A DNA stretch of 64,000 nucleotides from Candidatus Omnitrophota bacterium (GCA_043797125.1 JAZDPX010000038.1:68071-132070); one strand, 5' to 3'. Counted from the stretch's first letter, positions 2,470 through 33,031 are shown. Notes: generated by a model from the letters alone, not told the origin. Made by a program: numbers and translations.

Positions 2470-2476
2470 TTTCTCC

Positions 2477-2508
2477 TATCGACCATAGACCATCGACTAT
2501 TGACTATC
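2477..2508 (-). promoter_or_regulatory. shared 5'-UTR motif (CTATCGACYATAGACCATCGACTAT), copy upstream of HExxH-protein gene
   Basis: 25/26 identity with 58351-58376 upstream of mfd. Contains direct repeats of TCGACTAT. Confidence 0.4.
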
Positions 2509-2883: not shown

Positions 2884-2959
2884 TGGAGCCGGCGAAGGGA
2901 ATTGAACCCCCGACCCGCAGTTTACAAAACTGCCGCTCTACCAACTGAGCTACGCCGGC
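2884..2959 (-). tRNA. tRNA-Thr (anticodon UGU)
   Basis: Reverse complement GCCGGCGTAGCTCAGTTGGTAGAGCGGCAGTTTTGTAAACTGCGGGTCGGGGGTTCAATTCCCTTCGCCGGCTCCA. Cloverleaf with 7-bp acceptor, GTTCAATTC T-loop, anticodon loop TTTGTAA (TGT), encoded CCA. Confidence 0.8.
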
Positions 2960-2973
2960 AAATTTTCTTCAGC

Positions 2974-12849: not shown

Positions 12850-12888
12850 CCATAAGTGCTCAAAACGCTAATGGTAGCGGCGAGTGGA
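12850..12888. repeat. 39-bp direct repeat, proximal copy overlapping tRNA-Met 3' end
   Basis: See 12667-12705. 17 nt of the tRNA 3' end plus 22 nt flank are duplicated 183 bp away. Confidence 0.6.
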
Positions 12889-12949
12889 CTTGAACCACTG
12901 ACACCCCGGGTATGAGCCGAGTGCTCTAAACCAACTGAGCTACGCCGCC
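12872..12949 (-). tRNA. tRNA-Met (anticodon CAU; elongator-type, could alternatively be tRNA-Ile2)
   Basis: RC GGCGGCGTAGCTCAGTTGGTTTAGAGCACTCGGCTCATACCCGGGGTGTCAGTGGTTCAAGTCCACTCGCCGCTACCA. Anticodon loop CTCATAC. G1-C72 pair and no GGG/CCC anticodon stem, so not initiator. Confidence 0.8.
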
Positions 12950-13371
12950 TCGAAATTTTCTACAAATTTTTCTGCCTGTTTTATATATTCTTTGTAACCT
13001 CTAATCGCTAAGGCTACTGCCCTATATACCTTTTCGTCATCTATATCCATATATTCGTGGACTAATATATTTCTCATTCCAGCAGAGCCCTTAAGCTTAT
13101 CAGCCAGTTTTCTTGAAATTAAGCCTGCTTCTGCGGCTTTTATAAACGAGATACTATAATCTTCCGGGGGCCTGTTACCGGTTTCAACCACTACGTGATT
13201 ATTTACATCCGTAGCGCATTCAACAATTAACTGGATAAGCCGCTCCGTAGAAGATTTCAGATAAAAATCTTTTTTGTACTCTTTTAAGCTTTTTTTAGAA
13301 ATGGGTTTCAATTTCTCGAGATACATATTTAAGCGCGACAACTTTCTTCTTATAAGGTCTATGTCTATCAT
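12940..13371 (-). CDS. hepT: HEPN-domain toxin HepT (DUF86)
   Basis: 143 aa. Rx4HxY motif (MRNILVHEY) near C-terminus. Immediately downstream of the cognate nucleotidyltransferase. Last 3 codons overlap the tRNA-Met 5' end. Confidence 0.7.
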   Translation of the reverse strand: MIDIDLIRRKLSRLNMYLEKLKPISKKSLKEYKKDFYLKSSTERLIQLIVECATDVNNHVVVETGNRPPEDYSISFIKAAEAGLISRKLADKLKGSAGMRNILVHEYMDIDDEKVYRAVALAIRGYKEYIKQAEKFVENFEAA

Positions 13372-13374
13372 ATG

Positions 13375-13776
13375 CTATTCCTTCTTTTTTATCGCTAATT
13401 TAAGATATTTTTTCTCTAATAATCTAAATTTTTTCGTATCTATATATCTTGACATTGCGCCAATTTTAAATTTATTAAACAAGCCCTTTGTCTTTTCATA
13501 TAAAGGAACTCCGTTTATGGCAACGTGATATGTAATCATTGCCTCTGCGCCGTTTAAAAATACCGGGTCAAATTTGTCTCCAAAAACCGAGGAAAAATCA
13601 TTCATTATATCAAAATATTTTTTTTTGATGATGCCTGGCTCGCCTAAAAATCCTATATCAATATCGCTGTTGGAATTAGCGCAATCTCTGGCGTATGAGC
13701 CGTGCAAAATCCCCAAAGACAATTTGTATTTTTTGCAAAGTTTATTAAAATTTTTGTTATTGTAAGCGAGCATCAT
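13375..13776 (-). CDS. mntA: minimal nucleotidyltransferase antitoxin MntA
   Basis: GSYARDcansnSDIDIGF = GSxxRG...SDIDL MNT signature. 133 aa. Upstream of and coupled to hepT. Confidence 0.7.
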   Translation of the reverse strand: MMLAYNNKNFNKLCKKYKLSLGILHGSYARDCANSNSDIDIGFLGEPGIIKKKYFDIMNDFSSVFGDKFDPVFLNGAEAMITYHVAINGVPLYEKTKGLFNKFKIGAMSRYIDTKKFRLLEKKYLKLAIKKKE

Positions 13777-13867: not shown

Positions 13868-13899
13868 AGCAAAAAGTAGGGGCGCCATTTATGGCGCCC
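13868..13899 (-). terminator. rho-independent terminator of the giant-protein operon
   Basis: Perfect GC stem GGGCGCCAT..ATGGCGCCC (13880-13899) followed on the minus strand by CTACTTTTTGC. Confidence 0.55.
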
Positions 13900-13952: not shown

Positions 13953-16451
13953 TTACGCGCAAGCTCCTATGCTGTCTACGTATTTTATATCAGGAGCCTT
14001 AAGCGCTGCGTCATCAAAGTCCGTGACTATCGGATTGCCCGACTTTGGCTGATTGCCGTTTGCGTAAAATGGGCCAATCTGCTTTTTTTGCGCGAACGGG
14101 CTGTCTTCTAGTTTCACCTCTCTGCTTTTTTCTCCGGCGATGTTAAAAACAACCCTTTCATGAACAAAACTCTTTTCCATATAGAAAAATTTTCCATCTT
14201 CGCTGAATTCAAAGGACGTAACATTGCCAAAAATCCCCCTGAACATTTTTGGCAAGCCGGCATTTTTCATGTCAAGCAAAGTCACCTGCGGAATCATGTT
14301 CGTATAAGATTTAAAAGCTAAAAATCGCCTATCAGGGCTTATTTTATAATCGCTAATAAGATCGAATGTTTGCGCGACCTCGCCTGTTTCAAGATTACGA
14401 ACTATGAGCTGGTTATTCAAATTTATTATGCTCAAAAATTTGCTGTCAAATGTTGTGAAAAAACCGTTTGTGGCATCAATATTTTTTAATATATGCTTTT
14501 TGGGTCTTCTAGAGGCAAGATTATTTGCAAATAGCTGATTATGGTAATCCGTAGTTATTAAATAATTGGCACTGGTCAGCGCCCATTGATCGTGGGTTTT
14601 AAGCTCGGCTATATGCTTATTGCTGGGGTTTTCCAGGTCGTAAACATATAATAACGGAAACGGGCCCATTGACTTTACGGCAAATTGGGCGTCTTCGCTG
14701 AATACTAAATCATGGCAAAAATCATACTCTGTTTTAATTAACAGACCGTATTCCGAATCCAATATATACGCATAACTGTTCGCTAAAATGTTGTTTTTAG
14801 GCAGTATCGCGATGTGCCCCGCCTTGCTCGTTACTATTTTTCCGATATAGTCGCGGGTTATGCCGAGATATTCAAGCGCATAATCAGGGATATCTTCGAT
14901 GGTGATTTTCGGGATTTTGGCAGCTTTATCAGCTTTTTTGAATTCAACCCATCTTTTATTTATAAGGTCATATGCCCTTTTAACGCCTTTTTTATCTGTA
15001 AAATAGCATCTTTTGCTGGTAGGCCCGAATTCAAAACCGCCCGCTGCGTTTATTAAATCCTCTATAGGAGCGCTTGGATTTGAAACATCATATAAGGACG
15101 CTGTACCGTGGTTATCTCTTAAAGCGATATATTTGCAATCGGGGCTGAATTTTACCCCGCCAAAGGCATTTTTATTTTTTAACACAATCTCATCATTTGG
15201 GTTAAAGATAGATGTCAATCCGAAAAAAGTGGTTACAATGCTAAATTTGTTAGGGCCTTTCTCATAATAGCTTATGTCGGACGCATTTATGCCAAGTTTT
15301 TGCGCAAAGCATATCTTTGCCGTTATATTATCGTCTGGAACAAGAATTTCTTTCTCCGGCACAAGAAGAAAAGTCTTTTCGACGCCGTCCACGCCCGTAA
15401 CATATATCTCGGCTGAGTTATCGCTGAATTTAAAACCGCCTTGTGCGTCCTGGTTTTTAATTATACGCTTGCCTGTTTCAAGATTACATATCGTAATTTC
15501 AGAGTGCCTGTTCATTAAGAGAATAAATTTATTATCAGGGCTGTATTCAATATGCCAGGCAATGCCCTTGGTGTTGTCTTTTATTATTACCTCTCCTGTT
15601 TGCGCATCGATAACCTTAAGCCTGAAAAATCTGTCTTTTTTAACAATATATTTTAAATCAGGGCTAAGGCTGAAATGGCTGGCATCACCCCATTCCGCCT
15701 TTCTTGCAAGTGCTACGGTGCTGCCATTTAATGTTAACAAATACAAAAATTGTTTATCAGTCATCGCGTCTTTGGCAATAACAGCAGCGTTGTCCTTGTT
15801 AATAGTAATCTTGATATCCTTATCTTTGTCTATATCAAAATACTTAAGCGCAAGCAGCCTGATATTTCCTTCGTTGATTTTGTAATTATGAACATTAGTT
15901 TTTAGTTTTACAAATTCCAACCTATCGCCTGCAACAAGCCTTAGAGTCAGCTCTTTACCGTCTAGATCCGTAGCTTGAATTGTTTTATCGGAATTAAACT
16001 TAAAACCGTTCGCAGCATCGATGCCGCTTTTTAAGAGTTTTACATCCTCTTTACTATAAAAAATGGCCATGGTATCCCATGGAGGTGAGGTTACTTCTCT
16101 TTCAGCCAATTTCCATAAAGCCGCATTCCAATAAAAATCTATAATTGCCGCATAATTTCCGTCCGGGCTTAACTCAATTGCGCGGCAAGGATTCCCATCC
16201 TCGCTTTTTACAATAACGTTACCATGTGAATTTAATATTGTTCCTATGCCGAATTCATCTATTACAGCCTTGTAGCCCAAAGAGTTTATTTTTATGCCAT
16301 CAATCACCTCATTATCCTTGGTTACAGCAAGGCTTTGCGCTCTTAAGGCAGATTCGCTGACGTTTTGCTGGGGCAGACCGTAAGAAACATTTGTCGCTAA
16401 AAAGAAAAATATAATAAAAATCGTTATTATTTTTCTCATGTTTACGCCCAT
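13953..16451 (-). CDS. secreted PD40/TolB-like beta-propeller repeat protein (832 aa)
   Basis: Signal peptide. Repeated (F/Y/L)SPD(G/C/N/R)(K/N)(Y/F)(I/L) blades (SPDGNYAAI, YSPDNKFILL, FSPDCKYIAL, ISPDRRFLAF). Post-signal SALRAQSL. C-terminal FYANGNQPKSGNP motif. Confidence 0.7.
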   Translation of the reverse strand: MGVNMRKIITIFIIFFFLATNVSYGLPQQNVSESALRAQSLAVTKDNEVIDGIKINSLGYKAVIDEFGIGTILNSHGNVIVKSEDGNPCRAIELSPDGNYAAIIDFYWNAALWKLAEREVTSPPWDTMAIFYSKEDVKLLKSGIDAANGFKFNSDKTIQATDLDGKELTLRLVAGDRLEFVKLKTNVHNYKINEGNIRLLALKYFDIDKDKDIKITINKDNAAVIAKDAMTDKQFLYLLTLNGSTVALARKAEWGDASHFSLSPDLKYIVKKDRFFRLKVIDAQTGEVIIKDNTKGIAWHIEYSPDNKFILLMNRHSEITICNLETGKRIIKNQDAQGGFKFSDNSAEIYVTGVDGVEKTFLLVPEKEILVPDDNITAKICFAQKLGINASDISYYEKGPNKFSIVTTFFGLTSIFNPNDEIVLKNKNAFGGVKFSPDCKYIALRDNHGTASLYDVSNPSAPIEDLINAAGGFEFGPTSKRCYFTDKKGVKRAYDLINKRWVEFKKADKAAKIPKITIEDIPDYALEYLGITRDYIGKIVTSKAGHIAILPKNNILANSYAYILDSEYGLLIKTEYDFCHDLVFSEDAQFAVKSMGPFPLLYVYDLENPSNKHIAELKTHDQWALTSANYLITTDYHNQLFANNLASRRPKKHILKNIDATNGFFTTFDSKFLSIINLNNQLIVRNLETGEVAQTFDLISDYKISPDRRFLAFKSYTNMIPQVTLLDMKNAGLPKMFRGIFGNVTSFEFSEDGKFFYMEKSFVHERVVFNIAGEKSREVKLEDSPFAQKKQIGPFYANGNQPKSGNPIVTDFDDAALKAPDIKYVDSIGACA

Positions 16452-19400
16452 TTAATCGCTTCTTCCATCAGCCTCTTAAATTCTTCCGTATCTTTAACCT
16501 TGTCAGCTTCTATTGCAGGCAACGGTAAAAATTGAATTCCTGCGCGCAAATCTGTTTCTATTGAACCTACGCTGATGGGTAGGTTACCAAACAGGTCGTG
16601 GACATTAAAAAGCTGGCCTTCTTCCCTGACAGTTGGTATAAAGAAACGAACCTGCTTCGCATTAGCTAACTTGGACAGGGTATTTTTCGTTGTTTCATCG
16701 ATTTTATCAGCCGGCATAGGATTTAAAAACATAAGCAATAAAGAGCGTTCTGAAACGGATTTTTCAGTTTCGTAGAAATGCGCGGCAACCATCAAATCAT
16801 ATAATTTTTGTGATGCCTCGGCGGGTTTTTCTATTTGTGAAACTCCTTCCAACCGTGTTGTAAAAAGATTGGGTATGTTCATCCTGTCTATTATATCTAT
16901 CTTTTTATCTATAATCCTTTCCTCTGTCAGGGCATCTTTAAAATCCTTTGGCATTATATCTTTAGGCAAGGCGCTGTCAACAGCAACAACAAACCTGAAC
17001 AAAGACGTTTGCGAATTCTCAAGCTTTAAGCCCTTAACACTCTCGGCAAATTCCTTTAACCCGGGATTTAACAAGGCGTATGTATCAGGCATTGTTATAA
17101 CTATCTGATTTTTGAAATCAAAACGCATATCCTTCAGAGCCCGCATTATGTCAATAGGCGTTTCCGGCTTAAGCTTTGCTGAAATATTCATAGCTTGCGA
17201 TAACGCCTCTTTTAGTTTGTTCTCCGAATCTTTTCCTCCCGGCAAAGGCTCATCCTCATCCGTCTTCGGGTTTCCGCTGGCGTAGTGGACATATCCTTTT
17301 TGTGGCGCTTCAGTCACTTCGCCGGTATTTATATCAAGTATCCTTAGCGGCATTTCTACGCCGTCGGAGGTTTTACCAGCAAGGATTGTAACTTTTAGTT
17401 TATCGGGGTCATAGGCGGTATGAGAAGGTATTGGTATTTTGCTTTTTACAGGGTTACCCGGATTTTTATCGAGATGATAAAGGTCAAAATGCGTGGCCAT
17501 TAGAGGGGGCTTTTCGCTGGATCTAAACACAATCAGCTGATTTTTTGGCGTCAGCCAATAACAAACATCGTTGCCGTAGGCAATGCCTAAAGATACAGGC
17601 TCTTGTCCGGGATTTCTTAAATCACATACACGCAAAGGTTTGTCAAATTTAAGCCTGTTCGCGCCATTTGTCCACACGATGAAGCTTCCGTCGTCGCTAA
17701 TCTTCAAATTGGATATGCTTCCGTTGACGCATCCGCTTTCCGAATATGTAATTCTTTTAATTACTTTATAATCCGAATCATATACGATTATCGGATGTAA
17801 TATCCCCTTTTTTGTATACAGGACTATTGTTTTATTGTTCTTGCTTACAGCTAGGTTAATATTTGCTTTAGGTATGCCTTTGAAGTCTTGTATAAATACG
17901 CATGCTGGCATTTTATCAAACATCTGTTCTTTTGCATCATTCAGCGCGTTGCCGTTGGCGTAATTGGGTTGGGTGCCAACTTCAGCATTTCCGATGAGGT
18001 CTATAATCGTAGTTTCCCCGCTTGCATCAACAGCTTGAACCTGGGTGTCGTTATTTATAAAACTAATTCCTCTCGTCGCGTCTAAGTTTTCTTTTATTGG
18101 GTTATCCGGGTCTGCAATTCTATAAACAGATGCTGTATTATCTTTGTTCAGTATAATTAAATATTTCTCATCACTACTGACTTCGCTTGATAATTTTTCT
18201 TTCTTATGTTTATCCAATATTATTTGCAACCTGCGCCCAAAACTCAATGGCAGGTTGCCTTCTCCTTTATCCGTATCCGCATTGCCGTTGGCGTAGTGGG
18301 ACTGGTTTGAGGCAGAGGTATTGTTTAATTTAGTTAGGTCTACATCTGTTCTTTGTCTGTTGTATACATAGGTTAAGGTGTTTTTAGATTCAAAAGAAAA
18401 GCATTCCGTATCATGTGTAAATATCGGTTCGGATGGGTTTGGGCTTTTCATATCATATACTCTGCATCCTATATGATTATAATCCAGATTGTAATCTATC
18501 TCATACGCTATAGCAAAATATCTTTTATTGTGCTTGTTGAAAATAATATTTTTTGATTTTCCTTGAATTTGAGCTACTTCACTCTTAAGTTCTGTATCAT
18601 ATATAACTGTTACGCCTCTGGCAACACCATCTTTTTCCGGAATAAATGCCCAGAGATATTCAGCTTCGGGGCTGAAACCAAAGCAGGTTGCGCCTTGAAA
18701 CACTTTAATAGGTTTTTCTGCATGTGTCTTGTCAGAAAGATCGAGCAAAATCACCCTTCGTTTCTTGGGATCCTTGCTGTCTAACCAAACAGCAAGATAT
18801 CTGTTATTGCTGCTTTTCTCATAACCAGAATGATGTTCAATCTTCATTTTTGAAATTGGCTTATTTGGTTGTTTTAGGTTATACAAAGATATCGTAATTG
18901 TTGTAATTCCCATAAAAACAAGGGCAATATTATTACCTTCTAACGGCATGATGTAATCGTCGCGGCCAATTGGTTTATTTAATATAAGTTCCTCTTGTGG
19001 ATTAAAAACAAATGCCTTATATCCCCAGAAGGTATGGGTAACCAAAACAACTCTGTACCCTTCTTCATTTACTATATCGTTTCCATCTTTATCTGTTAAA
19101 ATAATATCTTTTACAAATACATTATGTTCACCAAGCAGAGAGAGCATCTTTGCTGTGACATTTTTTGGGGTGACAGAAAGGCTAAGGTTCTCTTCACCAC
19201 GCGTTGTTTTTATTGTTAAGCTTCTACTATCAGGCGCAAAAGCGCAGTCTTTTATTTCATTATTCTCTCTATCGCCTTCAGGAATCTGGTATGTCGCTAT
19301 AGGCTCATTTGGTTTTTTGTCCCATAAATCATAAATCTCTGCTGAGAACTCATTATTTATAGCTAGAACAAATCTGTAATTGTTGCTTATTTCTACGCCG

Positions 19401-22400
19401 CAAGCGGTATCTATATCCTTGATTTTAATTTTTTCCGTATACAAATTTATTATATCAGTTAGCGATAGAGCATTTCCTTTAGCGTCGACGAATTCTCTGT
19501 CTGCGACTAAATGTGCGCCATCCGGCGTAACCCGATATCCCTCATTAGCGTTTATACCCGTCATTACAGGTTCTGCTGGGTCTGTAGAGTCTATATTATA
19601 CACGGTCAGCATCATGTCTTTATCTCTAACTATTAACCGGTTGCTTTTAGTCAGCAGTCCGTCTATGATGTCATCTGTTTTTATGCCGAAAGATTCTAAT
19701 TTTTTAAATACTGCATTTTCTTTATCCGTATCCGCATTGCCGTTGGTGTATTGGACTTCGCGTGACTCTGAAGAGGGAACTTCTTGGTGCTTATTTGTTA
19801 ATGTAGAAAGGTTGATTTTTTCTACCTTGCCATTGATTTCGCAGCTAAATGTGTCCTTTGACTTAAAAGCACAATTTATGGCTGATGCGGCAAATATCGG
19901 CTCATAGGGCTTGTCGCCTTTCAAATCATATACCAATTTATTAGGAGTGCCGCCATATTCTGCCCAAATATATCTCTCTTCTTTGTCGTATGGGTTATAA
20001 TGAATTATCTGTAGGTTCTTAGGAATTACTACACGGGTGTTATCGCGCAAATTATAAATAGTTGTGCTCGTTTGGGTCCATTGGGGATATGTACTTCGCA
20101 ATCCGAGATAATTTGCTTTAGGGCTGAAATAAAAATTGTTGGCTTTTTCAAAAGTTACAATTGGGTACTTTACAGAATCTCCTTCCTTGTGCAAATCAAG
20201 CACTGAAACTGTGCCGCGCTTTTCAAAGGCAATATACCTGTCGTCAAAAGTTTGCTCAAAATCATACAGGCCTGTTAGTTTGATTTTAAAAACAGACTTT
20301 TTAAGGTTCTTGAGGTTATATAACAACAGGTTGCAGTTATCCCCTATGGTCGGTGTCAGGAAAGCAATATTATTGCCTTCAGCAGGCAAAAGGCAGGTAT
20401 TTTTATATACCTTCTTGCGCATAATGAGGTTGTCTTGCGGATCAAAGACGTATGCCCAGCTCGAATTGGAAAACGCTACTTTGTAACCCGCATTGTTCGT
20501 TTTGATTTTCCTGCTTAAATCAATTATAGGAAAATCCTCTGCCCTAAGAGAATATTCCTTAAGCTGTAATAGCATTTTAACTGTTAAGTATTTTGGGCAC
20601 ACAGGCAAAGCAAGAGTATCCTTCCTTTTGCCTATCTTTATAGAAAATTCTCTGCTGTCATTACTGAAGCCAAAATCGCTTACTATTGGGTCGGCTTTAC
20701 TGTTTAGGCTTAACTGGAGATTGTAAACCTTTATCGGCTTGTCAGGCGTATCGCTAAGCAAATCATATAGCTCAACGCACCAGGGGCTTGGTTTAGCTGC
20801 GAAAAACTGGCTATTCTTGCTAATTTTTTCGCCGCAAGCTGTGCTTATGCCTTCAATTACTTTTTCGCCTGTTAATACATTCACTATAGTAACTATATTA
20901 TTAAAAGCTACATAGGGCGGATCAGCTTCAGCGACAACATGCAAAGAATCCGGGGTAAGCCAAAATTTGCTGTTGGCATTTATATTTATTGCAATCGGCT
21001 TATTGGGTTTTTTAGCTTTTAAATTATAGATAGAAATCTGTCCGTTCCCACCCCTCACTACGAGCCTGTCTGAGTTGGTCAATTTCCAGTCCTCTGCTTT
21101 AATGTTCTCAAAAGTTAGCTCATCTAACTCAAGCGAGGCATTAAGATCGAATATTTTTAGCTTAGATGCGGCGTCAGGGTCAAGCGTATTCTTTTCTTGC
21201 CAGGCGGCGTAATTATTTGTAATCTGCAGGCTGTCTTTCAAGTACCCATACGATCTATGAAGCATAGGATAACTATTGTGTAAATAGGGCCCTAAAATAT
21301 ATAAAGTGAAAGATCTGTTTTTCTGCTTTGTAATTATTATGGCTTGTTTTTTATCATTAAGGAATATAGTCTTTATAATCTCTTTTTTCTCTATGCCTTT
21401 TGCCGCTAAATCGAGTTTCTTAAATGTATTTTCATCCGTAGGCGCATTGTCGTTGGCGTAAGGGCTTTTGCGAATATTGATAGTTTTGTTAGTTTCTGTT
21501 ATCTCAAAAAACTCCGCGTTTATCAACAATATTATTTCTTTTACCTGTTTCTGAAGCTCTTTATTTCCTATAAGATTTGGCACGCACTGGCCTATTAATG
21601 TAAGCCTGTGCTCCTGATCGGAAAAACTATCTTTATCGTTTATATGATTAAAGAACTCTTCTATAACGAGCTCTGCCTTTTTATTGTCCTGCCTCAAAAC
21701 CTCTCTTGTGCTGGCATAAAGCAGGTTATACCATAACAATATGGCGGAGTTAATTAAAGAGTAGCGCGCGCCTGTCTGGCCTACCTGCGCGTGGTCAGAA
21801 ACGGTAATCTGATATTTTATTTTAAATTCTGCGCCATCTTGCGCCTTCAGAGCCAAGTGCCCGCCTTTTTTCCCTTGCCAATTCAGCTCATGCATAGCCA
21901 TAAAATACGCCAGGCCGCGGGCAACGCTTAAGTTTCTTGTCGTGCCATCGCCGAATTTCACCGTAAGCACGACGTCGTTTTTCAATATGTCGCTGTAATT
22001 ATTTACAAAATCCTTATGCACGCGAAAGGCAAACTTTTCTGTATCGTTTTTTTCGTTGTATTCATCCTTGCCTTGCGGCAGCAGCAGGACGGCAATGTTT
22101 ATCCTGTCCTCTGCGCCTATGTATTTATCGCTTCCTATCTCTACAACTATGTCCTTATCTTTAATAAAGCCGGATTTTCCCAAAGCCCTGTTTATAATGC
22201 TTTCCAGTGAACCGTCATCTAAAGGAATGCCTTTAACAATATTTACTTCTGCGCCGGGAGGCGCAAGAGTGAAATCCTCGATTAATGCTTTGCTTGCGGC
22301 TGTTTGCGACAAGCTTTGCGCTCTTAGCGCTGACGCGCTCGCAAAGTCGTGCGCCAAGGCAATAGAACTATTTGTCGCTAAAAACAAAATAGCAGTGCAT

Positions 22401-22447
22401 AAAGACACTGCTTTCACAAAAATGGTTTTTGCTGTTTTCATCTCCAA
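16442..22447 (-). CDS. giant secreted multi-module beta-propeller repeat protein (2001 aa)
   Basis: Signal peptide plus SALRAQSL. Many (V/I)Y(N/D)L...P..(K/E)PI blade-like repeats and PD40-like FAPDSRSL/FSPEAEYL. Five Y-x-N-G-N-A-x-T-D motifs. Unique ~280-aa C-terminal domain. 10-nt overlap with the downstream 832-aa gene. Confidence 0.7.
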   Translation of the reverse strand: MEMKTAKTIFVKAVSLCTAILFLATNSSIALAHDFASASALRAQSLSQTAASKALIEDFTLAPPGAEVNIVKGIPLDDGSLESIINRALGKSGFIKDKDIVVEIGSDKYIGAEDRINIAVLLLPQGKDEYNEKNDTEKFAFRVHKDFVNNYSDILKNDVVLTVKFGDGTTRNLSVARGLAYFMAMHELNWQGKKGGHLALKAQDGAEFKIKYQITVSDHAQVGQTGARYSLINSAILLWYNLLYASTREVLRQDNKKAELVIEEFFNHINDKDSFSDQEHRLTLIGQCVPNLIGNKELQKQVKEIILLINAEFFEITETNKTINIRKSPYANDNAPTDENTFKKLDLAAKGIEKKEIIKTIFLNDKKQAIIITKQKNRSFTLYILGPYLHNSYPMLHRSYGYLKDSLQITNNYAAWQEKNTLDPDAASKLKIFDLNASLELDELTFENIKAEDWKLTNSDRLVVRGGNGQISIYNLKAKKPNKPIAININANSKFWLTPDSLHVVAEADPPYVAFNNIVTIVNVLTGEKVIEGISTACGEKISKNSQFFAAKPSPWCVELYDLLSDTPDKPIKVYNLQLSLNSKADPIVSDFGFSNDSREFSIKIGKRKDTLALPVCPKYLTVKMLLQLKEYSLRAEDFPIIDLSRKIKTNNAGYKVAFSNSSWAYVFDPQDNLIMRKKVYKNTCLLPAEGNNIAFLTPTIGDNCNLLLYNLKNLKKSVFKIKLTGLYDFEQTFDDRYIAFEKRGTVSVLDLHKEGDSVKYPIVTFEKANNFYFSPKANYLGLRSTYPQWTQTSTTIYNLRDNTRVVIPKNLQIIHYNPYDKEERYIWAEYGGTPNKLVYDLKGDKPYEPIFAASAINCAFKSKDTFSCEINGKVEKINLSTLTNKHQEVPSSESREVQYTNGNADTDKENAVFKKLESFGIKTDDIIDGLLTKSNRLIVRDKDMMLTVYNIDSTDPAEPVMTGINANEGYRVTPDGAHLVADREFVDAKGNALSLTDIINLYTEKIKIKDIDTACGVEISNNYRFVLAINNEFSAEIYDLWDKKPNEPIATYQIPEGDRENNEIKDCAFAPDSRSLTIKTTRGEENLSLSVTPKNVTAKMLSLLGEHNVFVKDIILTDKDGNDIVNEEGYRVVLVTHTFWGYKAFVFNPQEELILNKPIGRDDYIMPLEGNNIALVFMGITTITISLYNLKQPNKPISKMKIEHHSGYEKSSNNRYLAVWLDSKDPKKRRVILLDLSDKTHAEKPIKVFQGATCFGFSPEAEYLWAFIPEKDGVARGVTVIYDTELKSEVAQIQGKSKNIIFNKHNKRYFAIAYEIDYNLDYNHIGCRVYDMKSPNPSEPIFTHDTECFSFESKNTLTYVYNRQRTDVDLTKLNNTSASNQSHYANGNADTDKGEGNLPLSFGRRLQIILDKHKKEKLSSEVSSDEKYLIILNKDNTASVYRIADPDNPIKENLDATRGISFINNDTQVQAVDASGETTIIDLIGNAEVGTQPNYANGNALNDAKEQMFDKMPACVFIQDFKGIPKANINLAVSKNNKTIVLYTKKGILHPIIVYDSDYKVIKRITYSESGCVNGSISNLKISDDGSFIVWTNGANRLKFDKPLRVCDLRNPGQEPVSLGIAYGNDVCYWLTPKNQLIVFRSSEKPPLMATHFDLYHLDKNPGNPVKSKIPIPSHTAYDPDKLKVTILAGKTSDGVEMPLRILDINTGEVTEAPQKGYVHYASGNPKTDEDEPLPGGKDSENKLKEALSQAMNISAKLKPETPIDIMRALKDMRFDFKNQIVITMPDTYALLNPGLKEFAESVKGLKLENSQTSLFRFVVAVDSALPKDIMPKDFKDALTEERIIDKKIDIIDRMNIPNLFTTRLEGVSQIEKPAEASQKLYDLMVAAHFYETEKSVSERSLLLMFLNPMPADKIDETTKNTLSKLANAKQVRFFIPTVREEGQLFNVHDLFGNLPISVGSIETDLRAGIQFLPLPAIEADKVKDTEEFKRLMEEAIKWA

Positions 22448-22552
22448 TTCCCCTATTTAGACTTTTTTAAGATGTTTTTTGTATATTTAAAAAGGTATGA
22501 ATATTATAGCAAAAAAAATGCTTAAGTCAACGGTTTTTTTGAAAAAAGCAGT

Positions 22553-24954: not shown

Positions 24955-26049
24955 TTATATCAATGATAACAATTTGTCAATCTCTATGTGTTTGCGCGCG
25001 AGGCGCAGGATTATATCTATCTTATCCTTGTCCTGCGGCCGTATCTTGACGATCATGCTGTCTATTCTTTTCACGGCCTCATAGGTGCTTTGCTCAACAA
25101 CTATCGCGGGTATCTGGTTGCGCTCAAGCGCCTTTCTAAGCGAATATCCTGGGGAAATCCCGCAGGTAAACACAAAGCCGCACAATAAATCGGTTACTTT
25201 TGCGCGGCGCCTTGATTCGTTAAGCAAATATTTTATAAGCTCGTCCCTGTCGCCTGAAACAACCACAAGAAGTTTTTCATTAAAGCTTCGCAGCGTAACC
25301 TGGGGCCTTGCCGTGGCAACCACAATGTGGTTGATTATTTTATTTATGTTTGTTTTACTTCCGCTTATAAACTTTGCTTTAAATTCATCCTGCATATGCG
25401 CCATGGTAGGCATATCCAGTATCCTGAGATACGGCATAACGCCAAGCACATCGAGCGAGTGCTGTTTTAGGCTTTCCCGCACGAGTTCGTTCACCTTTTC
25501 GTATTTATCAGCCTTTACCTTGTTTATTATTACGCCGGCAATTTCAACGCCCTTTGATTTAAAAAGCGGAACCGAAAGCATAATCTCGTCAATAGGCCTG
25601 CCGATACCGCCTTCCGAAATTATAACCACTTTGGCGCCGAGCATGCTGGCTACATCGGCGTTGCACATATCAAACACAGAGCCTACCCCCGCGTGGCCTG
25701 TGCCTTCAATTACAACCATATCATTATCCTGAGCTATTTTTTCAAACGAATCCATAATCTGTTTTTGCAAAGGCCTTCTATCGGGATTTTTAATATATTT
25801 GCGCGTAAAATCTTTTTCTATCGCTATTGGGCTCATGTCCTTTAAACTTGCCTTTATGCCGAAAATTTCCTCTATAAGATAGGAATCTTCGTCGATATTA
25901 TAGCCCTGCTCTACTAAATAACGCTGGCCTATGGGTTTTATAAAACCTATTTTTTCAAAACGTTCTTTGAAAGCTGCCATAAGGCCCAGGGAAACTGTGG
26001 TCTTTCCGTCGTTTTGCCTTGTTGCAGCTATAAATACTTTTTTAGCCAT
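24955..26049 (-). CDS. stand-alone phosphotransacetylase N-terminal-like protein (BioD-like P-loop + DRTGG domain)
   Basis: NDGKTTVSLGLMAAF...IGFIKPIGQ resembles E. coli Pta N-terminus (TSVGLTSVSLG...FKPIAQ). MVVIEGTGHAG, GVIINKV, DRTGG-like LLVVVSGDRDELI. No catalytic Pta domain. Confidence 0.6.
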   Translation of the reverse strand: MAKKVFIAATRQNDGKTTVSLGLMAAFKERFEKIGFIKPIGQRYLVEQGYNIDEDSYLIEEIFGIKASLKDMSPIAIEKDFTRKYIKNPDRRPLQKQIMDSFEKIAQDNDMVVIEGTGHAGVGSVFDMCNADVASMLGAKVVIISEGGIGRPIDEIMLSVPLFKSKGVEIAGVIINKVKADKYEKVNELVRESLKQHSLDVLGVMPYLRILDMPTMAHMQDEFKAKFISGSKTNINKIINHIVVATARPQVTLRSFNEKLLVVVSGDRDELIKYLLNESRRRAKVTDLLCGFVFTCGISPGYSLRKALERNQIPAIVVEQSTYEAVKRIDSMIVKIRPQDKDKIDIILRLARKHIEIDKLLSLI

Positions 26050-26866
26050 TGAGTTTTCCCGCTCTAAAAGCCTTGATATAGTTCATGCAATAAGAATCTT
26101 CGCCGAGAAGGGCCTTTTGCGCTATTTTGAAAATTTCATCGGCAAGCGCGTGCTTTTTTATCACTTTATTAGTGAGTTCCTCTGTAGGATCTATTATCGC
26201 CGCGTCTATGCCCGCTTCTATCGCCAAAGATAAAAACGCCGCGTTTAATACACGCCTCTGGGGCAGGCCGTATGAGACATTGCTCAAGCCCCCTATTGTC
26301 TTTATGCCGTCTTTTTTAAGCGCCCTGACTGTTTTTAAAAATTCATTGGCCTGGTCAGGCTCGCTGCTAATCGGTTTTACCAAAGGGTCTATGTATATAT
26401 TATCAGGGGTTATCCCGGCATTTTTTAATGAATCTACCAGGCGCCTGGCAATTCTAAGGCGCTCTGAAGAATTATGCGGCATGCCTTTATCATCCATTGT
26501 GAGCGCGACAACAAAACAATCAATATTTTTTAATATCGAAGAGATATGTTTAAACTTATCGCTCTCAGCTGTTATTGAATTAATAAAGGGTTTACCCTTG
26601 TGAACCTTCAGCGCCCGGGAAATGACCTGCGCGTCAGGGCTGTCTATGCTTATCGGCATGCCAAGTTTTGACTGCAAAAGCTCCATTAACCAGATCAGGT
26701 CTTCGGATTCTTTTTCTAACCTTACCGCGCAATTTATATCTATAAAATCTGCTCCGGACTTAATCTGAGATGAAGCTTCATTGATTAAAAAGGATGAGTC
26801 TCTAGTAGATATGGCTTGCGCGATGGGCTTTCTTGAGCTGTTTATTCTTTCCCCGATTATGAGCAT
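26042..26866 (-). CDS. acsE: 5-methyltetrahydrofolate:corrinoid/iron-sulfur protein methyltransferase (AcsE/MtrH pterin-binding family)
   Basis: MLIIGERIN N-terminus, YIDPL, GLSNVSYG, DAAIID. Closely resembles the Moorella AcsE sequence as I recall it. Confidence 0.75.
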   Translation of the reverse strand: MLIIGERINSSRKPIAQAISTRDSSFLINEASSQIKSGADFIDINCAVRLEKESEDLIWLMELLQSKLGMPISIDSPDAQVISRALKVHKGKPFINSITAESDKFKHISSILKNIDCFVVALTMDDKGMPHNSSERLRIARRLVDSLKNAGITPDNIYIDPLVKPISSEPDQANEFLKTVRALKKDGIKTIGGLSNVSYGLPQRRVLNAAFLSLAIEAGIDAAIIDPTEELTNKVIKKHALADEIFKIAQKALLGEDSYCMNYIKAFRAGKLNG

Positions 26867-27792
26867 TGGCTTTTATCATAACTGGATTCTATGGTCTTCA
26901 CTAAAGCAAAAAGCATGTCATTCACAGGCGTCTTTATGCCGAGGCTTCTTGCGTGGCGAGATATAGCCCCGTTAATAGAATCTATCTCTGTCGGCCTTTT
27001 ATTAAGCACGTCCTGCAGCATGCTGCAAATATTTGAGCCTGTCGCAGCGCAAATTGATTCCGCCTTCTGCAACGGATCGTCATAGGCTAGTTTTGTGCCT
27101 TTGCGTTTTGCGACCTTGGCTGCCTCTGCCACAGAAAGCCGCAGCATTTCTTTTGTGCCGTCGTATTTTATAAGATCGCTGTTACAAAGCCTGGTTATTG
27201 CCCCAAGCGCGTTTATGCCGGCGTTAATCACAAGCTTGCTCCATATAACAGATTTAATATCCTTGGACATCTTGGTCTTTATCTTGGCCTCATTAAAAAT
27301 ACCGGCAATGGCTCTGACATCACCGAAAATTTTGCCATCCGATGCGCCTATCGTTGTTTCTTCGCTGCCGCAGTGTTTTATATGGCCTTCCTTAAACATA
27401 GTGGCAGCTTGCAAGCTAACCCCGCCAAGGGCCCTTTCTTCGCCAACTACCTCGTTTATCATTTCGAGGTTTCCCACGCCGTTTTGAATGGTTAGAACCT
27501 TGGTCTCTTTGCCTAAAAGCGGATTTATCTGTTTAATTGCTGACTCCGTATCATAGGACTTTACCGCTATTATCACAAGGTCTGCATTTGCGATTTCCTG
27601 GGCATCGGCAGTAACTTTTATCTTGGCTGTAAAATTAGATATGCCCTCAACTTTAATTCCATTTGCATTCAACCTCTTTGCCCTCTGCTCATTTTTATCC
27701 AAAATCCAGACCTCTTTTACGGATTTTGCGCGGCTTAATAATGCCGCAAATAAACAACCTATTGCGCCAGGGCCGACTATTACGATTTTCAT
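26857..27792 (-). CDS. panE: 2-dehydropantoate 2-reductase (ketopantoate reductase)
   Basis: MKIVIVGPGAIG Rossmann N-terminus, ApbA/PanE-like C-terminal domain. Adjacent to panB. Confidence 0.75.
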   Translation of the reverse strand: MKIVIVGPGAIGCLFAALLSRAKSVKEVWILDKNEQRAKRLNANGIKVEGISNFTAKIKVTADAQEIANADLVIIAVKSYDTESAIKQINPLLGKETKVLTIQNGVGNLEMINEVVGEERALGGVSLQAATMFKEGHIKHCGSEETTIGASDGKIFGDVRAIAGIFNEAKIKTKMSKDIKSVIWSKLVINAGINALGAITRLCNSDLIKYDGTKEMLRLSVAEAAKVAKRKGTKLAYDDPLQKAESICAATGSNICSMLQDVLNKRPTEIDSINGAISRHARSLGIKTPVNDMLFALVKTIESSYDKSQCS

Positions 27793-28626
27793 TTAAAGTC
27801 CCTCAAGTTCTTTTTCATCAACACTAAAACTATGTTCCTCGCCCGGAAATCTCCTCGCCTCCACATCATCCTTATATTGCCTTACCGCCTTTTCCATCTG
27901 CGCTAAAAGGTCAACATACCTTTTAGCGAATTTCGGGGTGAATTTTTTATATAATCCCAATATATCATGCGTGACAAGGACCTGGCCATCGCAATTTATT
28001 CCCGCTCCGATTCCAATGGTAGGTATTTTCAATTTAGAAGTTATAATTTTAGACAGCTTATCAGGTATGCACTCAAGTATCACGGCGAAACAACCTGCGT
28101 TCTCAAGCGCGACAGCGTCTTCTACAATTTTTTTAGCTGAAATTGAGGTCTTTCCCTGAACTTTAAAGCCGCCCAATTTTGTGGCGCTTTGCGGCGTAAG
28201 GCCTATATGCCCTAAACAAGGTATACCTGCGTTTATAATTGCTTTAATCTTTTCTATTGCCTCAATTCCGCCTTCAACCTTTACGGCGTCGCAACCGCCG
28301 TCTTTTATAAACCTGCCTGCGTTTTTTATTGCCTGCTCAACGCTTGCCTGATAGGACATAAACGGCATATCCCCGATTAAGAAAGCGTATTCTGTCGCCC
28401 TTGCAACAGCCTTAGAATGATGGATCATTTCTCTCATAGTCACAGGCAATGTATCTTTGTAGCCAAGCACGACCATCCCAACCGAATCTCCAACCAATAT
28501 AATATCAATACCTGCCTCGTCAATCACGGATGCCAAAGGAAAATCATACGCAGTAAGCATTGTAATGGGCGAGCCTTGCTTTTTCTTATTCTGAATATCT
28601 GTTATTGTAATCTTTTTTCTTTCCAT
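27793..28626 (-). CDS. panB: 3-methyl-2-oxobutanoate hydroxymethyltransferase
   Basis: ITMLTAYDFPLASVIDEAGIDIILVGDSVGMVVLGY, VKVEGG. Canonical KPHMT. Confidence 0.9.
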   Translation of the reverse strand: MERKKITITDIQNKKKQGSPITMLTAYDFPLASVIDEAGIDIILVGDSVGMVVLGYKDTLPVTMREMIHHSKAVARATEYAFLIGDMPFMSYQASVEQAIKNAGRFIKDGGCDAVKVEGGIEAIEKIKAIINAGIPCLGHIGLTPQSATKLGGFKVQGKTSISAKKIVEDAVALENAGCFAVILECIPDKLSKIITSKLKIPTIGIGAGINCDGQVLVTHDILGLYKKFTPKFAKRYVDLLAQMEKAVRQYKDDVEARRFPGEEHSFSVDEKELEGL

Positions 28627-30099
28627 CTATATTATTTCAAGAAATTTATCTACAAGCTTAGGATCAAATTCTTTGCCGCTGCCCTTCTTAAACTCGTCTT
28701 TAATGGACTCTTTGCTTAAGCTTTTTCTGTATGGGCGGTCTGTTGACATGGCATCATAGGCATCTACCATTTTCAATATCTTCGCTGTCAGGGGTATCTC
28801 TTCGCCTTTTAACCCGTCAGGGTATCCTGTGCCGTCCCACCACTCCTGGTGATATCTCACCATGTCGCACAGGGGGCTAAGTTTTCTTATCGGGCGCATT
28901 ATGTTCTCGCCTATTATAACGTGTTTTTGGAGCTCTTGTTCTTCTTCCTGCGTAAGCTTATCCTTTTTGCCTAAGATTTCATCTCTTACGCCTATCTTGC
29001 CTAAATCATGGAGCTTGGCGCCGTCTTTTAAAACTTCTATGGTCTTGTCGCTTAAGCCTAAGTGCTTGCTGAAATTAATCACCAATCTTGAAACTCTATC
29101 TAGGTGCCCGCGGCTGTACGGGTCCTTGGCTTCAACAGCAACTGCCAGGGCTGTTATTGTTTCTATATATGTCTTTTCTGCGTCTTCATTAAGGTTTGCG
29201 TTAGCAATAGCAACAGCGGCCTGAGATGCTATGTTTGTTATAAGCAGCTTATCGTCCTCGTTAAAATTTGAAGATCTTTTCTTATTAAAAATCGCCATCA
29301 CTCCCAGACAATCCTCTCTGTAGAGCAAAGGCACGGATATTATGGTTTTGTAGTGAAAGCGCGATTCATCATTTTCATCTATGCTTGGCACGCCGGTATA
29401 GGAAGAGATAATTGTTCTTTTTTCCTTAGCTGAAAGGCCGATTATTCCCTCCCCAAGCTTTTCAGATATCTTTTTAGCTGCCTTTTCATCAATGCCGTAA
29501 TACACGCTTGCCTGCAATTTTTCGCCTTTATCGTCCAAAAGCAATATGCAGCCGTTTTCGCCAAATACACCTTTGGTGGTCATTTCTATTATAAGCCCGA
29601 GAAGCTGGTCAATGCCCTCTGACGATGAAATGGCGGCTCCGGTCTTTGTAAAAATATCCTGTATAATATTTTTAGATTCTTCAAGCTCCTTAATCTTTTC
29701 TTCCAAATCTGAGGTAATTTTGTTAAATGACTTTGCAAGCTGGCCTATTTCGTCTGTGTCCGGGCCATCTACATATATCTTCTTTTTGTAATTTCCCTTA
29801 GCTATCTCTTTGCCGATCTCGGCAATGCGCGAAACAGCGCTGATGTTGCGCCTTAAAAAATAAAACATCAGGCCCATTAAACAGACGATCAGCGCTACTG
29901 TCACTCTTATGTACGGGAGTTTTTCCCAAAGTATATCATAACCCACAACTTTCAGGATATACATCAAAAGCATTAGAGGTATAAGCGACATGAAGAAAAA
30001 GGAGATGGCCAATTTACGGACCAGGCTCTCCTCATGTATTGAAGACAGCCTCATTTTAGACTTTTTAGTTTTTTTCATAGTATTAAAGCCCTGCCGCAT
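28627..30099 (-). CDS. HD-GYP c-di-GMP phosphodiesterase with N-terminal TM/HAMP and GAF-like sensor
   Basis: Two TM segments, HAMP-like coiled coil, central sensory domain. C-terminal HDLGKIGV ... HQEWWDGTGYPDGL (HD-GYP). Confidence 0.8.
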   Translation of the reverse strand: MRQGFNTMKKTKKSKMRLSSIHEESLVRKLAISFFFMSLIPLMLLMYILKVVGYDILWEKLPYIRVTVALIVCLMGLMFYFLRRNISAVSRIAEIGKEIAKGNYKKKIYVDGPDTDEIGQLAKSFNKITSDLEEKIKELEESKNIIQDIFTKTGAAISSSEGIDQLLGLIIEMTTKGVFGENGCILLLDDKGEKLQASVYYGIDEKAAKKISEKLGEGIIGLSAKEKRTIISSYTGVPSIDENDESRFHYKTIISVPLLYREDCLGVMAIFNKKRSSNFNEDDKLLITNIASQAAVAIANANLNEDAEKTYIETITALAVAVEAKDPYSRGHLDRVSRLVINFSKHLGLSDKTIEVLKDGAKLHDLGKIGVRDEILGKKDKLTQEEEQELQKHVIIGENIMRPIRKLSPLCDMVRYHQEWWDGTGYPDGLKGEEIPLTAKILKMVDAYDAMSTDRPYRKSLSKESIKDEFKKGSGKEFDPKLVDKFLEII

Positions 30100-30955
30100 C
30101 CAAAAGCCGGCCGACTTTGCTCTCCCATCCGATAGGCATAATATGAACGCCGCTTGCGACTGCCTTTAATTCTTTTATAAGTCCTGCGGCAATCTGGATT
30201 GCCTTTTGGGGCCTATCATTTTTATCAACCGAATCTATTTCCTTTATTATATGAGCCGGCACATTAATGCCTGCTACGTTATCATTCATATATTTAGCCA
30301 TTGCGCCGGACTTAAGCAATATAACGCTTGCTAATATAGGCGCGTCGATATGTTTTACCTTTTTCAGGAATGCCGAAAATTTATCTATATCAAAAATGGC
30401 CTGTGTCTGGAAAAATTTCGCTCCTGCTTTAACCTTTTTCTCCATTTTTATTATTTCCGGCTCTAAAAAGTCCGCCCCGGGGTTTACGACAGCTCCGGCG
30501 AAAACATCAGGCTTTCCGTCGAGAGCATTTCCTGTCATATCCGCGCCTGAATTAAGAGTTTTAATAACTTCCAGAAGCTGCACTGAATCAAGGTCGTAAA
30601 CAGGCTTTGCCTGAGGGTGATCTCCTCTTGTCGGGTGATCGCCAGTAAGAACCAGTATGTTATCTATGCCCAGCGCCGCGGCTGAAAGTATATCCGACTG
30701 CAAAGCAAGGCGGTTTCTGTCGCGCGTGGTTATCTGCAATATCGGCTCAAAGCCGTTTGTCTTTAAAAGATGGCACATCACCAAAGAACCCAGCCTCATG
30801 ACAGAACTTTGAAGGTCTGTAACATTAACCGCATCCACCCTGTTTTTAAAGTGCTCGGCCTCCTGCAGTATTTTTTTTGTGTTTATCCCTTTGGGCGGGC
30901 CTATCTCGCAGGTAACAACAAATTTGCCGGATTCCAATTTGCTTTTTAAGCTCAT
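30083..30955 (-). CDS. metF: 5,10-methylenetetrahydrofolate reductase
   Basis: MSLKSKLESGKFVVTCEIGPPKG N-terminus, FFQTQAIFD. TIM-barrel MTHFR. Confidence 0.85.
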   Translation of the reverse strand: MSLKSKLESGKFVVTCEIGPPKGINTKKILQEAEHFKNRVDAVNVTDLQSSVMRLGSLVMCHLLKTNGFEPILQITTRDRNRLALQSDILSAAALGIDNILVLTGDHPTRGDHPQAKPVYDLDSVQLLEVIKTLNSGADMTGNALDGKPDVFAGAVVNPGADFLEPEIIKMEKKVKAGAKFFQTQAIFDIDKFSAFLKKVKHIDAPILASVILLKSGAMAKYMNDNVAGINVPAHIIKEIDSVDKNDRPQKAIQIAAGLIKELKAVASGVHIMPIGWESKVGRLLDAAGL

Positions 30956-31605
30956 TTTTTCTCCAGGCTGATTTTTTTCGGGCTTAATCTTTTTTCATTA
31001 TCGCGCGGGTTTTGAGTATTTTTCATTTTTGAAAGCTCTTTGAGCGAATCGAGGCGTTCGTATATTTGAATCCACACGCAATCTATGTCTTTGCTTACTT
31101 CGCATTTTTTATCTTTAACGCCGCCGCAAGGCCCGTTCAGCAGCCCTTTTGGGCACAATGTAACCGGGCACAAGCCGCCTGTTTCATCCAGCACGCATTC
31201 CGCGCATAAAGAGCATTTCTGCACAAAACGTCCGTCGGACTGAACCTCGCCCAAAAATAATGTATCAAGACCGGGGTGCACTCTTTTGCCTTTTGTGCCT
31301 TCCACTATTGTCTGCGTGCCGTCTCCGCAAGTCAGGGCGAGTATCGCGTCTGATTTCTGTATCTGGGCCTTAAACTGCTGGTTCATCTTTTTTGCCTTTA
31401 CCAGATGGCAAGGCGGATCAAGCACAAAAGTGCCTGTTATAATTTTACCGTGTTTTGCAAGGAAGGCCTTCATTGCAAGGACTTCTTCCTCGCCGCCGGT
31501 TTTACACACAGTAGAACACTGCGCGCAGCCGGCTATGAATATCTTTTTGTCGCATTTAAGATACTCCAGTATTATGTCTTTATCTTTTTGTTTTGTAATT
31601 ATCAT
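30952..31605 (-). CDS. metV: MTHFR C-terminal-domain zinc/FeS protein (MetV), partner of MetF in acetogen-type reductases
   Basis: Cys-rich. CPKGLLNGPCGG hallmark motif. 4-nt overlap with metF. Confidence 0.75.
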   Translation of the reverse strand: MIITKQKDKDIILEYLKCDKKIFIAGCAQCSTVCKTGGEEEVLAMKAFLAKHGKIITGTFVLDPPCHLVKAKKMNQQFKAQIQKSDAILALTCGDGTQTIVEGTKGKRVHPGLDTLFLGEVQSDGRFVQKCSLCAECVLDETGGLCPVTLCPKGLLNGPCGGVKDKKCEVSKDIDCVWIQIYERLDSLKELSKMKNTQNPRDNEKRLSPKKISLEKK

Positions 31606-32971: not shown

Positions 32972-33031
32972 ATTTTAAATTTTTAATTTTGAATTGCAAT
33001 TTTGAATTTTGCATTTTTAATTTTTAATTTT

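Follow-up and report, generated by a model that had tools for sequence, protein, structure and literature searches.

The P97/P102 adhesins of Mycoplasma hyopneumoniae are cleaved at S/T-X-F↓X-D/E in disordered regions, as established by mass spectrometry (PMC3322551), and in CdiA and Rhs proteins the short peptides VENN and PxxxxDPxGL stand at the sharp border between blocks with different histories (PMC3150448). Omnitrophota are believed to attach to hosts or prey by means of large secreted proteins, and the giant proteins of this group are suspected of being cleaved, at cut points that are not known (bioRxiv 10.1101/2023.11.21.568195). Here, we present a short linear motif from a 64,000-nucleotide (nt) stretch of DNA of Candidatus Omnitrophota bacterium (GCA_043797125.1 JAZDPX010000038.1:68071-132070), which was analysed as a whole and is referred to below as the window, all coordinates being window-based. 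The motif, a Y-A-N-G-N core followed by a looser A-x-T-D tail, recurs five times along a secreted protein of 2001 amino acids (aa), hereafter the giant protein, and once in the adjacent 832-aa protein, hereafter the neighbour, and it marks junctions between domains. As far as the searched data go, it is a lineage-private short linear motif and a private example of junction motifs in modular secreted proteins, in which the excess synonymous identity between copies is the unexplained twist.

With the P97/P102 adhesins the locus shares a short recurring peptide in stretches of predicted disorder that separate functional regions of large secreted or surface-located proteins and of their paralogues, and for those adhesins, too, the responsible protease has not been identified and is not encoded next door. 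The two differ in the motif itself (Y-A-N-G-N against S/T-X-F-X-D/E), in the WD40-like propellers of the present proteins and in the organism, and cleavage at the present motif is putative. As with VENN and PxxxxDPxGL, a short peptide lies at the sharp border of blocks with different histories, and the border is sharp in the DNA too, which is compatible with recombinational exchange of blocks. In contrast to those systems, neither toxin or immunity families nor orphan cassettes occur in the window, haemagglutinin and YD repeats are absent, and the motif stands five times along one protein instead of once before a variable C-terminus. The two proteins also resemble bacterial WD40-like propeller proteins, through sub-threshold Pfam propeller matches of the neighbour and an AlphaFold2 (AF2) model of aa 1095-1376 of the giant protein, whereas the giant protein itself reaches no Pfam threshold and has one sequence relative, at an expectation value (E) of 1e-4.

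The two proteins are encoded by adjacent open reading frames (ORFs), and each carries a typical Sec signal peptide at its N-terminus:

16442..22447, minus strand: ORF of the giant protein, 2001 aa; NCBI MFH0732702.1, 'hypothetical protein V2A72_07280', from a Candidatus Omnitrophota metagenome-assembled genome (MAG), where the annotation starts at Met3 and gives 1999 aa
13953..16451, minus strand: ORF of the neighbour, 832 aa; NCBI MFH0732701.1, WD40 repeat protein, annotated with 828 aa

Defined by the peptide pattern Y[AT][NS][GD]N, and with a full length of nine residues or 27 nt, the motif begins at aa 330, 900, 1385, 1496 and 1722 of the giant protein and at aa 796 of the neighbour. Its copies, set against the 27-nt consensus TACGCCAACGGCAATGCGGATACGGAT, are the following:

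21434..21460, minus strand: copy 1, YANDNAPTD, aa 330-338 of the giant protein, at the junction of the N-terminal domain and module 2; 24/27 nt as in the consensus
19724..19750, minus strand: copy 2, YTNGNADTD, aa 900-908 of the giant protein, at the junction of modules 2 and 3; 26/27 nt
18269..18295, minus strand: copy 3, YANGNADTD, aa 1385-1393 of the giant protein, after module 3; identical to the consensus, 27/27 nt
17936..17962, minus strand: copy 4, YANGNALND, aa 1496-1504 of the giant protein; its first 18 nt equal the search pattern TACGCCAACGGCAAYGCG exactly, with one synonymous T-to-C change from the consensus, and the sequence diverges thereafter
17258..17284, minus strand: copy 5, YASGNPKTD, aa 1722-1730 of the giant protein, ahead of the C-terminal domain
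14040..14066, minus strand: copy 6, YANGNQPKS, aa 796-804 of the neighbour, 29 residues from its C-terminus

A preliminary description of this DNA had quoted six such peptides, all of which were found exactly as written, including the one near the C-terminus of the neighbour, but the intervals of roughly 300-550 aa that it reported are in fact 570, 485, 111 and 226 aa. When the giant protein is shuffled, 0.012 matches to the pattern are expected by chance, at least five were present in 0/20,000 shuffled sequences, and no further match was found in any other long reading frame of the 64-kb window. Within the core, Tyr1 and Asn5 are present in 6/6 copies and Asn3 in 5/6, with the tail being looser. 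The earlier statement that no named motif corresponds to this peptide was also borne out, as Pfam and NCBIfam are blank on the giant protein and no match below E = 0.2 came from a profile search of the PDB.

The giant protein begins with a signal peptide and an N-terminal domain, continues with a pair of paralogous double-propeller modules and two smaller modules rich in beta structure, and ends with a helix-rich C-terminal domain. The two double-propeller modules are as follows:

19751..21433, minus strand: module 2, aa 339-899, a paralogue of module 3 (blastp, 32% identity, E 4e-60)
18296..19723, minus strand: module 3, aa 909-1384, with two propeller sub-modules

These modules share 32-33% identity, and their alignment runs through the motif. 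Copy 1 joins the non-propeller N-terminal domain to module 2, copy 2 joins module 2 to module 3, copy 3 joins module 3 to a ~100-aa segment similar to the beginning of a module, copy 4 joins that segment to a propeller of ~225 aa, and copy 5 joins this propeller to the helix-rich C-terminal domain. Propeller halves inside one module are joined without the motif, and the neighbour, with its several propeller sub-modules, has a single copy in its C-terminal tail. As copies 1, 4 and 5 border a non-propeller domain, the ~100-aa segment and the helix-rich domain, the motif marks domain junctions irrespective of the type of domain and not just the ends of propellers. The earlier view of it as a boundary marker that lies outside the blades thus stands, but the accompanying claim that each copy follows a propeller fails for copies 1 and 4, and copy 5 has the helix-rich domain after it.

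Structural context is available for copy 3 from an AF2 model of aa 1095-1410, built on an alignment of eight paralogous sub-modules from both proteins and ending before the following domain (mean predicted local distance difference test score, pLDDT, 79; predicted template modelling score, pTM, 0.76). It comprises two parts:

18320..19165, minus strand: WD40-like beta-propeller with an N-terminal helix, aa 1095-1376, confidently modelled
18218..18319, minus strand: predicted disordered linker, aa 1377-1410, which holds copy 3 and combines low pLDDT with a hydrophilic trough

In a Foldseek search of the PDB, the model of aa 1095-1376 matched eIF2A, eIF3b, G-beta and the clathrin terminal domain at E 1e-7 to 1e-8, and the flanking modules are accordingly modelled with the closed fold of four-stranded blades by which a WD40-like beta-propeller is defined. 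Over the last 34 modelled residues, including YANGNADTD at 1385-1393, the block pLDDT drops to 38, 29, 27 and 25. This low tail is not simply an end effect, because the other, N-terminal end of the model scores 84-88. A single-sequence AF2 model of aa 1360-2001, covering copies 4 and 5 and the C-terminal domain, reached a pLDDT of 32. At the sequence level, all six sites lie in hydrophilic troughs, at the 0.9th to 19th percentile of Kyte-Doolittle hydropathy in a 21-residue window, and the share of VILFMWC residues around them is 9-24% compared with 30-32% in the whole proteins. With copy 3 in the low-pLDDT tail, 12 residues beyond the end of the propeller, the motif does not appear to be a turn within a blade, and the ordinary beta-turn inside a blade that the preliminary description had considered does not apply to this copy. 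The motif is therefore predicted, from one modelled copy and a shallow alignment, to be a linker element outside the folded propeller, and an accessible, disordered position between domains is what characterises protease-processing sites as a class.

Adding to the earlier observation, which concerned the peptide, the repeat is conserved at the DNA level with synonymous sites included. While copies 3, 2 and 1 match the consensus at nearly all 27 positions, its first 18 nt have 0-3 mismatches across all six copies, and neither the 27-nt consensus nor the 18-nt pattern has another match in the 64 kb or any match in shuffled sequence. The motif is the top direct-repeat family of the 8.6-kb locus, all copies having the same orientation and frame. 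The conserved tract measures 27-35 nt and the flanking DNA is not alignable, so that the border is sharp in both DNA and peptide. Among pairs of identical residues, 67/84 use the same codon, against 36.4 expected from the codon usage of the genes, a value reached in 1 of 200,000 Monte Carlo simulations (p ~5e-6 assuming independence). Because the copies are related, a star-tree simulation was also run, with codon retention taken from the closest module pair (52% shared against 41% expected), and under this model the shared codons have p ~0.002. Elsewhere in modules 2 and 3, blocks of at least three identical residues share 26/47 codons (55%), against 9/9 in the motif, and the background between the giant protein and the neighbour is 60/139 (43%).

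The differences between copies are distributed unevenly along the motif. In the five-codon core there are four synonymous and three conservative non-synonymous differences from the consensus, and the synonymous ones sit in the three more divergent copies with the peptide kept, which is the pattern that purifying selection at the peptide level predicts. The four-codon tail has 0 synonymous and 9 non-synonymous differences, several of them of two or three bases. Copies 2 and 3 are identical at 33/35 nt, and their three differences over ~38 nt all change the amino acid. From these patterns we infer two layers, consisting of an older constraint on the Y-A-N-G-N peptide and a more recent sharing of DNA among at least copies 1-3, which would have come about through short-tract conversion or recombination, or through some nucleotide-level constraint. 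Codon usage was rejected as an explanation, since the G+C content of third codon positions and the CpG content are ordinary for a back-translated peptide (p ~0.13-0.14) and only the identity between copies is unusual. A role of RNA was likewise rejected, as no common fold exists at the six sites and none of them folds significantly better than shuffles (z -1.5 to +0.8). An Rfam scan of the window found two tRNAs only, and the promoter-like and terminator-like sites lie at positions other than those of the motif.

The N-terminal parts of the two proteins offer additional observations. Just past their signal peptides, both share a leader of the form FLATN...S(A/E)SALRAQSL (22313-22389 and 16332-16408, both minus strand), which corresponds to two further DNA repeat families with 88% (D7) and 81% (D8) identity and has the same codon at 12/18 identical residues, compared with the between-gene background of ~43%. 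This leader may be a second private signal, for sorting or maturation, or a further patch of concerted evolution. Additionally, the N-terminal domain of the giant protein contains MHELNWQGKKGGH at aa 183-198 (window ~21854-21901, minus strand), which loosely recalls the metzincin zinc site HExxHxxGxxH with Trp in place of the second His; no Pfam or NCBIfam profile and no PDB sequence match identifies this domain as a protease, and the resemblance would be relevant only if the domain were itself the processing enzyme.

Relatives of the two proteins are scarce in the databases that we searched. Word-index searches returned only the giant protein itself, and for the neighbour only itself and one generic WD40 protein; a search with the N-terminal 340 aa gave no match at all and missed even the identical self protein, which makes this negative unreliable. 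When aa 886-2001 were compared exhaustively by phmmer with 1.84 billion cluster representatives, the matches were the giant protein itself and one protein of 647 aa (E 1e-4), which shares only a blade turn of the form DLxSxxPNEPI (DLxSExPNEPI) and has no YANGN-like motif in either the protein or its locus. This relative is encoded at JGI 3300018080, Ga0180433_10010900, 1084-3027, where it adjoins genes for TolB-like, TonB, ExbD and ExbB proteins. In viral contigs, the module alignment retrieved no relative. Run on 185,579 species genomes and on metagenome contigs, a degenerate DNA pattern for Y[AT]NGNAxTD had 23 and 56 matches, respectively, which is consistent with chance, the expectation being ~20-40 by a rough estimate from the information content of the pattern. 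All of these matches are single, taxonomically scattered and in unrelated contexts, many being off-frame readings of low-complexity DNA, and none of them is from Omnitrophota or has a linker context.

Profile and literature searches gave a similar picture. The giant protein reaches no Pfam or NCBIfam threshold, and the neighbour matches several beta-propeller Pfam families below their curated cut-offs, with only RMC1_N passing (27.5 bits against 27.3). Nothing meaningful emerged when the N- and C-terminal domains and the motif profile were searched against PDB sequences, the only matches, to leucine-rich repeats and to one S-layer 'YANGNA' (E 0.2-0.7), being taken as chance, and in the full text of the literature 'YANGN' occurs only in place and cultivar names. 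By these sequence comparisons, the giant protein and its neighbour are orphans in the searched databases.

The observations can be accommodated if the motif is a recognition element that is read in trans. By analogy with the cleavage motifs of the Mycoplasma adhesins and with the cleavage proposed for giant proteins of Omnitrophota, our preferred reading, held tentatively and at rather less than even confidence, is that it is a putative endoproteolytic processing site in a polyprotein-like secreted precursor. Cuts in the linkers of the 2001-aa precursor after export would separate from one another the N-terminal domain, both double propellers, both small modules and the C-terminal domain, and the neighbour would be shortened by its 29-residue tail. 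The scissile bond would lie at or beside an Asn of the motif, and a peptidase specific for Asn, or else Asn chemistry, would be in keeping with the invariant Asn. Since Asn-Gly in a flexible chain undergoes deamidation and not cleavage, we favour an enzyme over self-cleavage. Of the three mechanisms raised in the preliminary description, proteolysis by such an enzyme or by the Asn itself is the only one that our data do not disfavour. The sites of Asn cyclisation in FlhB/YscU (NPTH), in inteins (C-terminal His-Asn) and in autotransporters (Asn-Asn) are similar in having an invariant Asn followed by Ala or Pro, with Asn-Pro in copy 5, but they lie in ordered catalytic surroundings, in contrast to the predicted disorder here and the low-confidence tail of the modelled copy, which speaks against a pre-organised site, and no homology to these families was found in Pfam or NCBIfam. 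The near-identical DNA of three copies would, under the processing reading, reflect concerted evolution, by short-tract conversion or recombination between in-frame direct repeats, on top of selection on the peptide.

Several results weigh against processing. No protease, legumain-like enzyme or other partner gene lies beside the operon among the window genes scanned, an S41 C-terminal processing protease being housekeeping-like and 26 kb away, and no orthologues were found in the searched genome, metagenome and viral collections. A usable structure model covers 1/6 sites and comes from eight paralogous rows with the following domain absent. Processing also leaves the shared synonymous codons unexplained. 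Between copies, a tail codon is either the same or altogether different, which looks more like recent DNA identity than like long-term selection on the peptide.

It is these last features that are best explained if the 27-nt in-frame repeats are recombination anchors, that is, short patches of DNA-level homology that permit the in-frame exchange, gain or loss of modules and are themselves homogenised in the process, with the linker peptide merely tolerated. A codon identity far above background, the exclusively non-synonymous differences between copies 2 and 3, which fit a recent shared tract, and the tail with its 0 synonymous and 9 non-synonymous differences all agree with this, as do the uniform orientation and frame of the copies, the paralogy of the modules, one of which is truncated, and the N-terminal leaders, whose 12/18 shared codons also exceed the ~43% background. 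Yet 27 nt is at the lower limit for homologous recombination, the 64-kb window holds neither silent or orphan cassettes nor extra repeats, the scanned collections hold no extra copies, and no recombinase is found among the window genes scanned. Moreover, the core has changed synonymously with its peptide kept, which points to selection on the peptide. Such anchors would be comparable to the conserved borders of swappable cassettes in polymorphic surface or toxin genes. A precedent exists in the VENN and PxxxxDPxGL demarcation motifs with their orphan cassettes (PMC3150448). Overall we regard anchoring as the primary function as rather unlikely; it is the chief rival of the processing reading.

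Doubtful to us as well is a hinge or docking element that is not cleaved, in which an Asn-Gly turn would present the invariant Tyr and either set the geometry of the domains or bind a propeller face of its own or a partner molecule, and so build a surface mesh. To judge from the sequences, the motif would suit such a part, being autonomous in linkers and in a C-terminal tail, and Asn-Gly is a classic former of type I' turns. The adjoining domains are WD40-like propellers, and among their Foldseek matches is the clathrin terminal domain, whose grooves bind peptides. Speaking against docking, the AF2 model shows neither an ordered hairpin nor a docked position for the modelled copy, and the codon identity is left unexplained.

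Processing and anchoring could also be combined, with the 27-nt junctions serving two purposes, as DNA anchors for the in-frame gain, loss and exchange of propeller cassettes and, at Y-A-N-G-N, as cut sites of the precursor; we consider this unlikely. Equally unlikely in our view is its extension, in which the locus would be a cassette system for non-toxin propeller surface modules of a host-dependent nanobacterium, following the logic of the VENN and PxxxxDPxGL junctions with an unrelated sequence and content.

We find it quite unlikely that the motif is a functionless relic of module duplication, a stretch of linker copied along with the modules. The paralogy of modules 2 and 3, the alignment that spans the motif and the restriction of the family to one locus are what a relic would show. 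On the other hand, the motif also joins non-homologous domains (module 2 with the N-terminal domain before it, and module 5 with the C-terminal domain after it) and occurs in the tail of the neighbour, it is the only stretch kept where the modules are 20-33% identical and the flanking DNA is unalignable, and its codon identity exceeds that of other conserved blocks.

The preliminary description had also offered a calcium-binding loop, which for an inter-domain position would be of the EF-hand, dockerin, TSP3 or cadherin-linker type and would stiffen the chain; this we judge very improbable. The series N-x-N-x-D-x-D is present in copies 2 and 3, and ANDNAP of copy 1 resembles the DxNDNxP linker of cadherins. 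The full cadherin linker, DxNDNxPxF, is likewise an Asn/Asp-rich motif at the domain junctions of a beads-on-a-string protein, and copy 1 reads ANDNAPTDENTF. However, conservation of the acidic ligands does not extend to the other copies. Motif position 7 varies between D, P, L and K over the six copies and positions 8-9 vary too. Loops of the EF-hand, dockerin or TSP3 type (DxDxDG) have conserved acidic or amide ligands at loop positions 1, 3, 5, 9 and 12 and Gly at position 6, whereas here loop position 5 is P/D/D/L/K/P, position 6 is never Gly and position 12 is never acidic. Even at E <= 1, the EF-hand, dockerin, TSP3 and cadherin profiles give no match, in Pfam no Cadherin match was obtained, and the flanking domains are propellers and not cadherin folds. 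Calcium-binding repeats are, for their part, common in some giant proteins of Omnitrophota (bioRxiv 10.1101/2023.11.21.568195).

The likewise proposed sortase-type signal, or another modification site (glycosylation of Tyr or Asn, or an Asn-Gly deamidation switch), is highly improbable: N-[AP]-x-T-[D] loosely recalls the class B sortase motifs NPQTN, NPKTG and NAKTN, and Asn-Gly in a flexible chain deamidates quickly, but five copies are internal, every copy is followed by hydrophilic sequence with no hydrophobic span and basic tail, the tail of the neighbour, QPKSGNPIVTDFDDAALKAPDIKYVDSIGACA, is equally without a hydrophobic span, no sortase gene is among the window genes scanned with Pfam, and the motif has no N-x-S/T sequon.

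For the processing reading, the value of the motif is that a statistically secure junction motif in a tractable protein of 2001 aa constitutes a concrete candidate cleavage site. The excess codon identity further provides a concrete hypothesis about the construction and upkeep of such modular genes. To date, the motif is restricted to a pair of orphan genes in a single MAG, and its general significance is thus limited unless relatives turn up.

The gene pair looks like a two-gene operon, given that the start of the neighbour overlaps or abuts the stop of the giant protein and that a promoter match lies upstream and a hairpin at the end; the overlapping or abutting start and stop also make co-transcription of the two genes probable. 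The candidate signals, each identified by consensus match only, are:

22503..22530, minus strand: sigma-70-like promoter match upstream of the gene for the giant protein, TTGACT-16-TATAAT, preceded by TG
13880..13899, minus strand: terminator-like GC-rich hairpin with a T-run, directly after the stop codon of the neighbour

A further match to the sigma-70 consensus, TTGACA-16-TATAAT (12/12), is located at 16953-16980 on the minus strand, within the 3' end of the gene for the giant protein and ~500 nt upstream of the start of the neighbour, and, going by this consensus match only, it may be an internal promoter for the neighbour. The G+C content of the two genes (14001-22000) is 0.37-0.41, compared with 0.44-0.46 in the flanking housekeeping genes, which could be due to a composition rich in Lys, Asn and Ile or to foreign origin.

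The surroundings of the operon are of housekeeping type, with genes for FtsH, TilS, a PilZ protein, a HepT/MNT pair, H+-pyrophosphatase, and pantothenate and folate/C1 enzymes, and the Pfam scan of the window genes tied no protease, sortase, glycosyltransferase or recombinase to the operon. Directly downstream, at 12875-13776 on the minus strand, lies a toxin-antitoxin pair made up of a HepT-like RNase (12940-13371) and an MNT nucleotidyltransferase (13375-13776), where the end of the HepT ORF has ~10 nt in common with a tRNA gene (12875-12949). The folate/C1 cluster at 26042-34654 on the minus strand is typical of the methyl branch of the Wood-Ljungdahl pathway and includes the following genes:

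33032-34654, minus strand: formate-tetrahydrofolate ligase
32417-32971, minus strand: FTCD_C cyclodeaminase-like gene
31605-32429, minus strand: FolD
30083-31605, minus strand: MTHFR and the partner with its C-terminal domain
26042-26866, minus strand: pterin-binding, CdhD-like protein

All convincing genes of the 64 kb are on the minus strand and the GC skew is negative throughout (cumulative -3.57), which fits a single replication arm with a strong gene-strand bias.

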